Below, in pieces: positions 13,287 to 63,614 of a DNA stretch of 64,000 nt. A program made the position numbers and the translations under genes. The stretch lies in NCBI GenBank assembly GCA_951406725.2, contig OX597820.1, forward strand, positions 117,986,001 through 118,050,000, given 5' to 3'. A model generated the notes under the pieces. That model saw nothing but the letters and a program-made list of their open reading frames with translations, was not told the origin of the DNA and made no database searches. Position 1 is the first letter of the stretch; every line of letters begins with the position of its first letter. Origin of the DNA: Octopus vulgaris (lineage: Eukaryota).

Positions 13287-13519
13287 GGCGGCGAGCTGGC
13301 AGAAACGTTAGCACACCGGGCGAAATGCTTAGCAGTATTTCGTCTGCCGTTACGTTCTGAGTTCAAATTCCGCCGAGGTCGACTTTGCCTTTCATCCTTT
13401 CGGGGGTCGATAAATTAAAGTACCAGTTACGCACTGGGGTCGATGTAATCGACTTAATCCGTTTGTCTGTCCTTGTTTGTCCCCTCTATGTTTAGCCCCT
13501 TGTGGGCAATAAAGAAATA
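13287..13519 (+). mobile_element. SINE-B full-length monomer (tRNA-like head, Nin/Deu-like core, Tx1-like tail) with ~18 bp TSD
   Basis: Head GGCGGCGAGCTGGCAGAAACGTTAG, B-box GAGTTCAAATTCC, core GCCTTTCATCCTTTCGGGGTCGATAAATTAAAGTACC. TSD AGAAACATCTGGCTCAGA at 13268-13285 and 13520-13537. Confidence 0.9.
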
Positions 13520-15349
13520 AGAAACATCTGGCTCAGAGTTGTAACGTCTGACTCAACAAAGCTCCAGTTGTTGGTCGGGAGTTTTGTCATCTGCAGCGGG
13601 GTGGTGGTGGTGGTGGAATCGGGTAGCACTGGTATCACGGTGGAAGAGGCCGAAACATCTACGGAGCTGCTTCACTGACTGAACCGATCTCATTCAAGTT
13701 AGATTGCTGGTCCTTGAGCAAGACACTTCATTTCATGTTGCTCCAGTCTACTCAACTGGCAAAAGAGATTTGTTCCTGTCATTCAAAAGGGCCAGCCTTG
13801 TCACATTCTGTGTCACATTTTGAATCTTCCTGAGAACTATGTTAAGAGTACATGCGTCTGTGGAGTACTCAGCCACTTGCACGTTAATGTCACGTGCAGG
13901 CTGTTCTGTCGATCTGATCGTCGTCGTAACCGACGGAGAGCCAGTTATCTCCCGTTAGTATTAAAGAAGTCGGTGACAGAGAGAGAGAGAGAGAGAGAGG
14001 AAGTACGTTTGTCTGAAGAAACCTTCCTATCAGTTCTTTAAGATATTAACAACAACAACAAACATCACCAGCACCGTCACCAATACATTTGGTGATGGTA
14101 ACAACAACAACAACAACAAAACAACAACTACAACGGCAGCAGCAACAACAACATCTCCACCAACTTCACCAGAAACACAGTCGTGACTTCTGAAATCCAT
14201 GGGACTGAGGAAAGGAAGCCGACCGCTGGCAGATTGGATACCATCATCACCAGCAGCAGTAGCAGCAGCAGCAGCAAAAACATTCTGCGTCGACCACTAG
14301 AACCGAAACCACGACCAATGCGTTCACTACCGCTGCTTACACAGCAGCTACAACAGCCTCGTCCGCATCATCATCATCGTCATCATCATTAGCACTCTCC
14401 TTCCCTCGACCTCCTCCTACTCCTCATCGACATCATCGTCGTCTTCATCATCATAATCATCATCCCCATCATGCTCCTTCCCTCTTCCTCCTCCTCCTCT
14501 TCTTCCTTCTCTTGCTCCTTCCCTCATCACCCCTTCCTCCTCTTCCTCCTCCTCTTCCTCCTCCTCTTCCTCCTCTTCTTCCTCCTCTTCTTCCTCCTCT
14601 TCTTCCTCCTCTTCTTCCTCCTCCTCTTCCTTCTCTTGCTCCTTCCCTCATCACCCCTTCCTCCTCTTCCTCCTCTTCTTCCTCCTCTTCCTCCTTCCCT
14701 CATCATTCTCTTCCTCCCCTCTTCTTCTTCTCCTCTTCTTCTTCTTCTTCTTCTTCTTCTTCTTCTTCCTCCTCCTCTTCTTCTTCTTCCTCCTCTTCTT
14801 CTTCTTCCTCCTCTTCTTCTTCCTCTTCTTCTTCTTCTTCCTCCTCCTCTTCCTCCTTTCCTCATCATTCTCTTTCTCCCCCTCTTCTTCTTCCCCCCCT
14901 CCTCCTTCTCTTCCTCCCCCTCCTCCTCCCACCACTACACCTTCATTATCATCATTATCACGAACAACATCTTTTGAGCTTTCGCTAAAGACTCCATCGA
15001 ATGGAATTCGGACTGCCTCGAAAAATCCTGAAGAATGGTAAGCTGTGATCAGCAGCGAAGCCATGCTTTCAAGATTTCGCTCGTTTAGGTTCCAACGATG
15101 GTCAGAGCGGCAGGAACGTCCGGATCATGAGAGGTACTCAATGACATCCTGCTCGAACTGGAATGGGGCTGGTTCATGCAGAGGACATCGCAAAGATGGT
15201 GTCGGACACCTTGGAAATCGATGTGGTAGGCACGGTGGATAAAAACTGGAATGAGCCTGAAGGTGGGTAGCCAGTCTTATTCTGAAAAATGGGCTGAGAG
15301 TACCTTGCACTAATTTACCTTATGTGTATGTAAATATACCGCATATAGC

Positions 15350-15895
15350 CGAGGTGCAGACGTGGCTGTGTGGTAAGAAGCTTGCTTCCTAACCACATGG
15401 TTCCAGTTTCGGTCCCACAGCGTGGTACCTTGGGCAAGTGTCTTCCGTTATAGCTTCGGACCGACCACCAAAGTCGTGTTAGTGGATTTGGTAGACAGAA
15501 ACTGAAAGGAACCCGTCGTGTATATATATATATATATATATATATGTGTGTGTGTGTGTGTGTGTGTGTGTGTGTGTGTGTGTGTGTGTGTGTGTGTGTG
15601 CGTGTGCGCGTGTGTGTATGCGTGTGTACGTACATGTGCGTATGAGTGAGTGTGTGTCTTTGTGTCTGTATTTGTCCCCTACCACTGCTTGATAACCGGT
15701 GTTGGTGATTTTACGTCCCCGTAACTTGGTGGTTCGACGAAAGAGATCGCTAGAATAAGTTCCAGGTTTAGCAAAAAACAAAAAAAAAACCAACAAAAAA
15801 TACATATTAGTGTCGATTCATTGGACTAAAGATTCTTGAAGGCAGTGCCCCAGCATGGTCGCTGTCAAATGTCTGAAACAAGTAAAAGATAAAAG
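15350..15895 (+). mobile_element. SINE-A, full length
   Basis: Head, internal (TA)n(TG)n and 3' GAAACAAGTAAAAGA are all present. Confidence 0.85.
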
Positions 15896-61600: not shown

Positions 61601-62074
61601 CCTGTTCGAGAGAAGAGCTACAGACACGGTTCGAAAACCATCACCGGACCGACCTGCCCGAGATGCGGTCAGAGCGACGAAACCGTTCTGCACGCACTCG
61701 TGCAGTGTCCAGATATTTCAGAGCTGTGGTCCTTCGTCGAACAGCTGTTGTCACGTGTAGGTCAGGCTCGCCTATCGGCCGAGTCTATTGTGAATATTGT
61801 TCCACCACCTTCCTTTAAACGGGAAGGGAAAACGGTTTTCGTTACGCTGATGGCTATGGCGAAAGAATGTGTGTGGTGGACGCGTTTGAAAGGACTGCAA
61901 ACAAACACCTTCCTCTCTGGTCAGTCTCTCGTCAACTTTTTCAAGTACCACTTGAAAAGGAGGATGAGAATAGAGAGGAAGGCTTTGTCGAACGAATGTT
62001 TTAATAAAAAGTGGGTAAAAGTGGCAAAAATGGTCAGTATGAAAGACGACACTATTTTAAGCATAAATCTGTAA
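58625..62074 (+). CDS. ORF2: APE-type endonuclease + reverse transcriptase + C-terminal CCHC, uninterrupted
   Basis: 1149 aa. EN motifs VNARGL, SETR, VYAP, GDWN, LDRI, TDH. RT motifs PGLDG, FRPITLLNADLKILAK, DQSKAFDRV, RQGCPLS, YADD. C-terminal CPRC...ETVLHALVQC. Confidence 0.96.
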   Translation: MSSMLKLGCVNARGLASAWKQGYLLNDIKSLDVDIVAISETRLSKPRALESMFGNQFDIYFSPCLPNMGGGGTAVLFRKSLKVKVRAIFLDPEGRLVVLDVDGRNGCAFRLMAVYAPSLTGRADFFRRLEVFLGTSRPLLLVGDWNATLDTHLDYVGRDRNRRGCKSLKDLLRRFHLSDRFRLDHPNVPTWTWTNRVGSSRSYLDRILCRTADRDSVGCPQFKIVSYTDHKFVTCTLDLDKTHRQGPGYWKLNTSLLARQVYRNRISELIKRALTGAVVNNRWWYALKMAIKSESIRFSKELAIERNRVEGDLVKKLEEALTTGSATNVLAARMALDQHLNAKHEGCVVRAKMRALRNEGIEAAREARVAEAQRGNRSTIRSLIDQQGCSLLEPERMCEAFQQHFARLFGASGGSERGMDFSAYLTDLPRLSAREAECCESPITAADVWDAMAGCARDKSPGLDGLPYELYCRMPDLFGDLLASVYCNWQQNGRIPGFVSRGAVTLLKKDSNKGNFIDNFRPITLLNADLKILAKVIAERLALVIGKLVDRAQTCAVPGRTIHDNLHLMRYIVDRVVKDPGMGGALINLDQSKAFDRVDHRYLAAVLRAAGFGPVFRGWIAALYSGIRSVIRVNGHLSKPFDITRSVRQGCPLSALLYVLTLEPLLRKLATLRGIPRELGCGTSVSAYADDVTVIVSSYQHIELVGETLRKYETVTGAKINPEKSVGLLLGTWRSKPMPSDCGSVVGRWTDGPVKLLGVWFSPDLQMDKNWDEITSRVVALSQTWAERKLSLKGRAEVANAYIASVIDYRLTVVPCPDATITKLERILFRFLWKGGVPMVRKSICCQHPLNGGLGMPWLMMRRHAVRLRHLWKFIDDGEQVWAPFVRRDFPQLVSLTELQTWIKKRPKLGDWHRECRQALQQLCRPGSNLCNFQTTKAFYRGLVEGRSDDTLGANLGVDEEFLTRLFRTTFGPGPMDNFQKSLAWQCYRDALPVREKSYRHGSKTITGPTCPRCGQSDETVLHALVQCPDISELWSFVEQLLSRVGQARLSAESIVNIVPPPSFKREGKTVFVTLMAMAKECVWWTRLKGLQTNTFLSGQSLVNFFKYHLKRRMRIERKALSNECFNKKWVKVAKMVSMKDDTILSINL

Positions 62075-63614
62075 CCAAAAGAGACAACGAGAAGTAAGGC
62101 GACTTACTCATGTGTTCTTTTTCGAATTGCCTGAGGTGACCTTGGTCTTTTTTTGTAGGTTTTTCTTTCCAAGACTACACCTAAACTGTGAACCTTATAT
62201 ATATATATATATTGCTTTTTTATACACCACACAACCCACAGATCCCTATTGATCGAACGTTTTTTTTTTTTTTTTTTTCTTGCCCCACCCATCCCACCTC
62301 GAAAACAAAAAATTCTACATTGTATTTCGTCCATTTTTATTCTGTGTTTAGCCCTGTGTGGCTACAATAAAAAGTTATCTATCAATAATTCTATATGTCT
62401 GTCTATCTATCTATCTATCGATCGATCTATCTATATGTCTATCTATCTATCTATCTATCTATCTATCTATCTATCTATCTATCTATCTATCTATCTATCT
62501 ATCTATCTATCTATCTATCTATCTATCTGCGCTCGTGCGCATGTATGAATAGAGATAATTAACTAATGATATTTTTCCTGTATCACAAAACCGAATAATC
62601 TTCGGGATGATCCTTGTGTATCAGTGATCAAATATGATTTCATTCGATATTCTGTGGCGATTCTGATTTGACTGATGGACTGCATTATAAATTAAATGGG
62701 ATTGTATACACTTGATCTAAGAAACTCACAATCACTCACATTCCAGCCGTGAATCACGTTTCTCTTATTTTCCCGTCACAGTTTATCTAGCGCCACATTA
62801 TCCAATGCGATATATCTTCTTACAAAGGGTTGCGCGCAATTTGAAGGCTGTATGACAGATCTTTTTAGCCAATTTGCATTTAGTGATTGTTTAACACCAA
62901 GGGAACCCAGTTTGGGCCAGCCTCACACAATAAATTCAAAGTTGTACTATACACCCTGTCTCATTCAAGACAGCAGTGTGTGATTTGAGCGTGATTTGAC
63001 TTTCATTTCTAGCAGGTCAAGCGGCCATATAAACAGAACTTACCATTGATTCTAGGTGGCTAGGTTTGCATAATTTCATTAGGCACTGTGTGAATGTGTG
63101 AAGATGTGCAGCAAGATTCGAAACCGAATTAACGAATTGCCAAGCGAAAATCACGGCTTAATAACAACCTTTCACGTGACCGGCCAAATTATAGACCAAT
63201 CAGCAGCCAGACATCATGTGATAAATCATTCTAGAAGCTACTAGAACATTTCTTTAAAGGCATGTTTTTGCGCAGAGTGTTCAAGACGACTGGGTGAAAT
63301 ATGGTCTCTACTTTTGACAAAATTATTTGTTCAGAGACCAGACGATTCATTCACTTGATGCTCTTAAAAGTCCTTATCACATCTCCTACCAAACCTAATG
63401 GGCAGCAACATATGTTTTGTAGTCATGAGCCAAGCGTACATATTTTCTCTGTCTTAATCAACTATTTGTAAGAGCTGCAGAATTATTCTTTCTAGTGTGT
63501 AAGACTTTGTTGTTACAATTTCTAATTCCTAACCAATATGAAAATGATTTGGGTGGTAAAATAAAGTTACATCATTTCCAGACAGGAACTCGCAAACACC
63601 AAACGACAGAGGCT

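Follow-up and report, generated by a model that had tools for sequence, protein, structure and literature searches.

The stretch analysed here comprises 64,000 nucleotides of Octopus vulgaris contig OX597820.1 (117,986,001 to 118,050,000; hereafter the window, whose own numbering is used throughout). This animal DNA is rich in microsatellites and contains, besides two short repeats that are abundant, a single full-length long interspersed element (LINE). One of the short repeats, a very abundant short interspersed element (SINE) of ~234 bp that we call SINE-B, consists of a head (13286-13334), a core (13335-13455) and, behind the core, a short linker and a tail. In its tailed form a 3' end like that of Tx1 LINEs stands in place of an older tail. 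SINE-B and Tx1 form, as far as sequence can tell, a real and well-supported SINE/LINE pair with a shared tail, of a kind rarely met in this clade, and SINE-B has the additional habit of building multimers with a fixed junction. The elements concerned are:

13286..13519, plus strand: SINE-B monomer with head (~13286-13334), core (13335-13455) and linker plus Tx1-like tail (13456-13519)
16439..16672, minus strand: SINE-B monomer with Tx1-like tail and a 15-bp target-site duplication (TSD) opening with GTAT
55636..55875, plus strand: SINE-B monomer with Tx1-like tail and a 19-bp TSD (55620-55638 and 55876-55894) opening with GGTATT
52140..52186, plus strand: paralogous empty site of the SINE-B insertion at 55636, matching its 5' flank at 37/39 and its 3' flank at 28/28 positions
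34400..34979, minus strand: SINE-B trimer of head, 2 x (core + Tx1-like tail), core and other tail of type I, with no convincing TSD
51075..51648, minus strand: SINE-B trimer of diverged head, 2 x (core + Tx1-like tail), core and other tail of type II
47172..50832, plus strand: 19.9 tandem units of 184 bp, each made of core + Tx1-like tail, with 98% matches, ending in AAATAGGT
18472..18690, plus strand: older SINE-B copy with other tail of type I and a TSD of 15/19
36160..36336, plus strand: older partial SINE-B copy with other tail of type II
52185..52325, plus strand: older, internally deleted SINE-B copy with other tail of type II and an inverted duplicate at 54945-55135
56490..62375, plus strand: full-length L1/Tx1-clade LINE in (TCTA)n with two open reading frames (ORFs), a 3' untranslated region (UTR) and no poly(A)
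28975..29436, plus strand: 5'-truncated Tx1 3' UTR in (TCTA)n, with the shared tail at 29388-29436 and UTR motifs colinear with the full-length copy
45925..46060, plus strand: 5'-truncated Tx1 3' end followed by (TCTA)n, the best match to the SINE tail (38/45)
29595..29880, plus strand: rearranged piece of Tx1 ORF2 whose endonuclease part agrees with the full copy at 170/205 positions
35706..35755, minus strand: orphan 3' end with the shared tail (37/44 positions identical to the SINE), lying outside any microsatellite

An earlier note on this DNA had aligned the SINE-B tail with the terminal ~45 nt of three Tx1 copies; the strings it quoted are in place and the alignment is borne out. Local alignment of the 49-nt tail with the last 150 nt of the LINE ends gives scores of 59 (end at 46060), 50 (29436) and 36 (62376), which are reached by none of 1000 dinucleotide shuffles per LINE end and by none of 4446 background 150-nt windows (background maximum 25). 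With the AATAAA signal removed, the scores are 45, 36 and 32, again beyond all shuffles and windows. The homology spans ~43-50 nt of the young SINE-B 3' end. Moreover, an nhmmer profile built from the three LINE ends alone, without any SINE sequence, recovers 27 SINE-B tails (3 in monomers, 4 in trimer units and 20 in array units) over model positions ~29-71 with E values from 2.7e-9 to 1e-3. Its remaining matches are the three LINE ends themselves, the fourth, orphan end (35751-35709, minus strand, E 0.0016) and one match of E 0.85. The homology between the SINE-B tail and the Tx1 ends is thus confirmed as far above chance. In aligned columns the tail is identical at 38/45 positions to the end at 46060, at 37/44 to the orphan end and at 34/38 to the intact LINE (56490-62375), which is the poorest match and carries a 6-nt insertion inside the shared segment. 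Upstream of the tail, the three LINE ends have additional UTR motifs in common that are not present in SINE-B, and older SINE-B copies do not have the tail; both point to a transfer from LINE to SINE and support the view that the tail is a captured 3' end of an L1/Tx1-clade LINE. A conserved GCCC...GGG stem-loop, which had been proposed for the shared tail, did not hold up: the LINE ends carry TGG where GGG is needed, none of the six ends folded is stable (z-scores -1.3 to +1.8), and the consensus fold has 2 bp without covariation or compensatory change. Scans of metagenome and viral contigs with the tail pattern gave 0 matches.

The full-length LINE contains ORF1 (56954-58567, 537 aa) and ORF2 (58625-62074, 1149 aa), both open, and the shared tail lies at ~62324-62375 in its 3' UTR. 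ORF2 encodes APE, reverse transcriptase (RT) and zf-RVT domains (Pfam). Its best PDB matches are human L1 ORF2p (E 2e-58) versus R2 (2e-21), and among its named homologues 'Transposon TX1' ranks best (39% over RT). With APE, RT and a C-terminal zinc finger and the closest similarity to L1, the element belongs to the L1 clade in the wide sense. An RT tree was built from the query and 32 of its 37 matches, five short or unmatched rows being dropped; among its 33 rows, none of them a curated Tx1 reference, the 10-row clade of the window sits in an open fork, and the tree does not settle a placement in Tx1. Marks of the Tx1 group are an ORF1 with a CCHC knuckle and sequence-specific insertion. A C-x2-C-x4-H-x4-C knuckle is visible by eye in ORF1, and Pfam zf-CCHC was found on its homologue P0047 (E 1.6e-4); ORF1 has 156 homologues in the full scan, and a word search with it returned no match. 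As for insertion, all four Tx1 pieces touch (TCTA)n, as expected of sequence-specific elements, with 13-15 TCTA/TAGA 4-mers in the 60 nt on at least one side versus 0-1 at the six tailed SINE-B loci. Since their UTR motifs are colinear with those of the full copy, the two truncated ends are genuine relatives, and the ORF2 fragment shares one (TCTA)n tract with the UTR copy at 28975..29436. This tract (28888-29990) stacks the two Tx1 pieces, and part of the ORF2 fragment (29806-29868) is inverted, an arrangement typical of a targeted hotspot. The presence of an intact two-ORF member indicates that the clade was recently active. More than half of the words of the intact LINE are present in 20 of 24 listed runs; no run known to be RNA is among those listed for it, run X11 being RNA by presumption only, and we make no claim on expression.

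All three tailed SINE-B monomers are flanked by perfect TSDs, namely 18/18 (13268-13285 and 13520-13537) at 13286..13519, 15/15 at 16439..16672, where one extra G that is not in the target precedes the TSD, and 19/19 at 55636..55875, the last backed by the paralogous empty site. SINE-B thus inserts with TSDs in the manner of target-primed reverse transcription. Clean TSDs of 15-19 bp had been claimed for the tailed copies in general; this is correct for the monomers, not for the two trimers and the 20-unit array. The empty site adjoins an inverted duplication (52185-52423 and 54854-55091, 98% identity), which encloses the internally deleted old SINE-B copy. Tails other than the Tx1-like one fall into two related types, I and II, where the earlier note had seen a single unrelated tail, but the copies bearing them are indeed more diverged: their cores differ from the tailed consensus at 14/79 to 27/119 positions versus 3/119 to 8/119 in tailed copies, a contrast inflated in part by subfamily differences. 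TSD mismatches, with boundaries set by hand, amount to 0/52 in the three tailed monomers versus 6/36 in two loci with other tails (15/19 and 15/17; Fisher p 0.004). Together these differences support a younger age of the tailed form. Recent activity is indicated for both elements, by the perfect TSDs of SINE-B and by the intact LINE rather than by divergence profiles.

The longest A run at nine SINE and LINE ends and junctions examined is 3-7 nt; none of them has poly(A), which makes recognition of poly(A) unlikely. ARAGORN and Rfam returned no match for the SINE-B head, including none to a small nuclear RNA (snRNA), and its A and B box-like motifs were seen by eye only. The core may be of the Nin/Deu kind; motif searches for it in papers and supplements gave no Deu/Nin match, no reference sequence being aligned. 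Contig depth is 2.0-2.75 times that of the head over the core and 1.1-1.7 times over the tail; these ratios are not copy numbers, 5' truncation contributes to them, and they were not used as evidence.

Absent from the earlier note and new here is the structure of the multimers, which read head + [core + Tx1 tail]n with a fixed joining site, AAAGAAATAG/GTATTTCG: every internal unit opens at GTATTTCG, directly behind AAAGAAATAG. The trimer at 51075..51648 has a 15/17 TSD around the whole, and its head, at 51648, abuts a decayed RT fragment of the L1 clade (51625-51916). This head (8/50 differences) and the last core (9/119) have diverged further than the middle units (6/118 and 3/119), which, with the old TSD, fits nesting of younger units between an older head and last unit. 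In the tandem array, over 47335-50832, GTT and GCT variants alternate in units 1-12 and a second, homogeneous variant occupies units 14-18, a pattern that is a record of stepwise unequal exchange. The array starts exactly at the broken end of one copy of the second abundant SINE of the window. Runs of four or more T are found neither in the monomer nor in the array nor in the trimer at 51075..51648; one lies in the last unit of the trimer at 34400..34979.

The junction was also sought in four public runs (518,099, 554,863, 9,986 and 28,768 contigs), compared over 13236-13700 by the best 15 of 898 joints and the best 24 of 1479 loose-end rows. The joint from the tail to 13335, with a G between, occurs in all four (at least 40, at least 24, 4 and 6 contigs) and, by depth, heads these 15 best joints in runs X6 and X7, while it comes second in X11 and fourth in X4. 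At least 1383, at least 1131, 73 and 122 loose ends before 13335 have the tail as their consensus, against at least 1982 and at least 1544 true 5' flanks before SINE-B in the two large runs. The occurrence of the junction in every run indicates that multimers are a general property of the SINE-B family. Behind the tail, run X7 has 32 loose ends with a consensus opening GGTATTTCGTCTGCC (agreement 0.51). No joint of an empty allele for the insertion at 13287 is among the best 15 of the 898. Two of the three monomer TSDs open with (G)GTAT, for which the chance expectation, computed post hoc, is ~3e-4.

Which Tx1 family supplied the tail can be approached through the differences among the ends. 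The CCCCTTGTGGGTA segment of SINE-B agrees with the orphan end at 35710 and not with the CCCTGTGTGG of the three (TCTA)n copies, and none of the six tailed SINE-B loci lies in a TCTA tract, though such tracts are common in the window. The weak tail match of the intact copy and the differing targets suggest that donor and driver of SINE-B was probably a sister Tx1 family and not the intact, (TCTA)n-targeting copy. The earlier idea of an old SINE that captured a Tx1 3' end and was remobilised by Tx1 is therefore retained for the capture and for the younger tailed form, not for the family of ORF2 58625-62074 as the driver. The sequence upstream of the orphan end (35706..35755) could be assigned to neither ORF1 nor ORF2: its interpretation as an ORF1-only (HAL1-like) element or as one with a decayed ORF2 found no support, pairwise, frameshift-aware, profile and Pfam tests all being negative (in the frameshift-aware test, 63 of 200 shuffles were as good). 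The orphan region (35706-37200, minus strand) has a UTR-like stretch rich in T and can form a hairpin at ~35862-35884; upstream it contains what resembles decayed coding sequence, and an old SINE-B copy interrupts it.

Taking these data together, we assign a probability of about 0.7 to the reading that SINE-B acquired a Tx1 3' end and is now amplified by a tail-recognising Tx1-clade ORF2p, with self-priming yielding the multimers; enzyme, direction of transfer, priming and mobilisation are in this reading inferred from sequence. An older SINE with a tRNA-like head would have gained ~45-55 nt from the very 3' end of a Tx1-clade LINE, and the simplest route would be a template switch of the reverse transcriptase from LINE RNA to SINE RNA. 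The tailed form would then have been amplified massively by a Tx1-clade ORF2p that reads the 3' sequence instead of poly(A). Multimeric copies may be transcribed past the tail into the next unit (GGUAUUUCG), and such read-through is expected under the standard rule for RNA polymerase III where no internal T4 terminator is present. Reverse transcription would begin just past AAAGAAAUA, aided by microhomology with the read-through extension. Such priming would favour sites that read (G)GTAT, among them position 49 of SINE-B copies already in place, where the cDNA might be joined homologously to the head of the target so that one unit is gained per event. Insertions of this kind, together with unequal exchange, could produce the head+[core+tail]n multimers and the arrays. 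The fixed junction and the (G)GTAT starts of the TSDs suggest that the head of the SINE itself is both the priming site and the target of the read-through RNA, but the TSD starts would follow just as well from a preference of the endonuclease. A bolder version holds that SINE-B, which ranks among the most abundant repeats of its lineage, is without precedent among animal SINEs in having a recognition tail derived from Tx1, and that it guides its own insertion: read-through RNA from multimeric master copies would pair with the nicked target and so redirect the enzyme of a microsatellite-specific Tx1 to GGTAT sites and to the head of the SINE itself. We regard this version as speculative and would sooner bet against it. 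If true, it would describe a self-reinforcing loop that seeds satellites, and imply that a 3' extension of the template can reprogram Tx1 target choice.

Several observations weigh against the self-priming Tx1 reading. Tails of stringent LINEs usually bear a stem-loop, and none is stable in the SINE-B/Tx1 tail. Tail identity to any LINE end in the window does not exceed 34/38 to 38/45 columns; the ends compared are those of the 64-kb window, and a closer tail may exist in other LINE clades. The orphan end is not tied to any coding LINE. The trimer at 34400..34979 has a young head (0/50 differences), which fits poorly with simple nesting into an old copy, and the TSD of the third monomer (13287) does not start with GTAT. 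Finally, SINE-B and Tx1 differ in their targets, whereas the crocodilian SINEU and Tx1-Mar share theirs (PMC4494074; statements on the literature here and below refer to the accessible portions of the papers cited).

The alternatives concern the driver, the role of the tail and the direction of the transfer. The (TCTA)n-targeting Tx1 family of the window might itself be the driver, if read-through at the RNA 3' end (UCUA repeats for the LINE, GGUAUUU for the SINE) set the target on top of a loose preference of the endonuclease, for instance for ^TAT(C/T)T. The LINE 3' junctions (AAAG-TTATCT, AAAG-TTGTCT and AAAC-TTATATCT) do resemble the SINE junction AAATAG-GTATTT, and the best tail match, at 46060 (38/45), is a copy flanked by (TCTA)n. 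However, Tx1 specificity is largely set by the endonuclease (Tx1L), the tail is matched least well by the intact copy, and 0/6 tailed SINE loci are in TCTA tracts. Although co-transcribed target RNA is said to reinforce target-specific integration (PMC4494074), we consider this driver unlikely.

It is less probable still that the tail is a passenger, taken from Tx1 once, while another LINE that needs no cognate tail moves the SINE and the multimers arose from one founder dimer only, by unequal exchange at the DNA level. The lack of a stable structure in the tail would suit a passenger, as would the 20-unit array, whose 98% homogeneity and alternating variants are typical of in-situ expansion and which resembles the bivalve arrays of head, truncated units and full tail (PMC11481361). 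Yet there is no poly(A) for a relaxed enzyme to use, all intact tailed copies keep the tail to its last base, and two trimers with different old tails require more than one founder dimer. Lowest of all we rate the reverse direction, in which Tx1 took a SINE-derived 3' end or both acquired theirs from some third source, for instance the orphan at 35710. The orphan end does share the SINE-type CCCTTGTGGGTA and the 10-mer TCGACTTAAT with the end of the SINE core, but the 10-mer falls short of significance, with equally good scores in 36 of 500 shuffles, the diverged Tx1 copies all carry the tail colinear with LINE-only UTR motifs, and the tail is not in the older SINE copies.

SINEs with L1-clade tails are few: among 58 pairs and in excess of 800 LINEs of the L1 clade, three have been listed, from maize and Chlamydomonas (PMC3472496, PMC3747384). 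Like SINE-B, ZmSINE2 and ZmSINE3 share terminal sequence with an L1-clade element, LINE1-1_ZM, as does SINEX-3_CR with L1-1_CR, and the conserved end of the monocot lineage is of the same length as in SINE-B, ~45 nt (PMC3472496, PMC3747384). The algal pair, however, terminates with poly(A), and in the monocot ends a hairpin is formed that shows compensatory changes (PMC3472496, PMC3747384), whereas SINE-B is an animal, Tx1-like case with no poly(A) and no stable hairpin; the word octopus does not occur in the accessible text of PMC3747384. Crocodilian SINEU is mobilised by a Tx1-group LINE (Tx1-Mar), as proposed for SINE-B, and likewise found in tandem insertions (PMC4494074). Yet SINEU has snRNA heads and poly(A) and is linked to its LINE by shared targets, no LINE having been found to share the 3' end of SINEU-1 (PMC4494074), whereas SINE-B has a shared tail and different targets. 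SINE-B therefore does not qualify as a passenger of the SINEU type, having no Rfam snRNA match, no poly(A) and differing targets. As with the Tx1 copies of the window, those of Kibi in (TC)n, Koshi in (TTC)n and crocodilian Tx1 in (TTCC)n/(TTTC)n lie in simple repeats (PMC4494074); the target in the window, (TCTA)n/(TAGA)n, differs from all of these. For the SINE itself, a parallel is found in the conserved-domain SINEs of bivalves, which swap tails on a shared core, with tails of 35-61 bp at 72-95% identity, and form TSD-(SINE)n-TSD arrays in which a full head is followed by units truncated at the same head position (PMC11481361). Their partners, in contrast, are CR1, CR1-Zenon, L2 and Nimb (Tx1 does not appear in the accessible main text), and their internal units have truncated tails, whereas those of SINE-B have a complete Tx1 tail and the last unit may differ in tail (PMC11481361).

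The SINE-B family itself is probably already catalogued. Ohshima and Okada reportedly described tRNA-derived SINEs of octopus in 1994, among them a family that we take to be named OK and presumably similar to SINE-B. Octopus annotations contain a 'tRNA-Deu' SINE class (60.9 Mb and 17 families in PMC13282606; the class is also in PMC8967140) and keep it separate from the L1-Tx1 LINEs, 13 families of which were recently active (PMC13282606, PMC8967140). In their accessible text neither paper mentions a partner LINE or a Tx1 tail for the tRNA-Deu SINEs. No animal SINE with a Tx1 tail was found in the literature searched, in which L1-clade SINEs sharing tails are from plants or algae only; Repbase, Dfam and subscription papers lay outside this search and may record the pair or the core domain. 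The accessible parts of PMC4758252, PMC3531059, PMC5804259, PMC4824008, PMC4176376, PMC5786205 and PMC11203168 do not report the SINE-B/Tx1 pair; 'TX1' in PMC4176376 denotes mutant proteins and is irrelevant to the Tx1 LINE.

It is still debated, so far on the basis of three SINEs from plants and algae, whether ancestral L1-clade enzymes required a specific 3' sequence and afterwards became relaxed to poly(A) (PMC3472496). With an intact two-ORF LINE next to a high-copy animal SINE whose Tx1 tail has no poly(A), this question becomes directly testable in a cell assay, and the pair would name the likely engine for a large share of the SINE content of this type of genome. The fixed-junction multimers may represent a concrete route from SINE to satellite DNA and offer a natural test of whether a 3' extension of the RNA steers target choice.

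The second abundant SINE of the window is ~420 bp long, contains an internal TA/TG microsatellite and occurs at 810-1250, 5097-5496, 8906-9372, 15352-15895, 19054-19816, 30412-30835 and 46870-47163. Further dispersed repeats of ~200-240 bp lie at 13710-13946, 40457-40690, 41503-41709, 8495-8679 and 63805-64000; parts of them match a stretch of protein P0093, in which the repeat was probably read into the predicted protein. By eye, a 70-bp direct repeat (35040-35110 and 35500-35570, ~480 bp apart) is visible just upstream of the trimer ending at 34979. A near-perfect palindrome of 300 bp (21923-22220, 86% self-complementary) resembles a miniature inverted-repeat transposable element.

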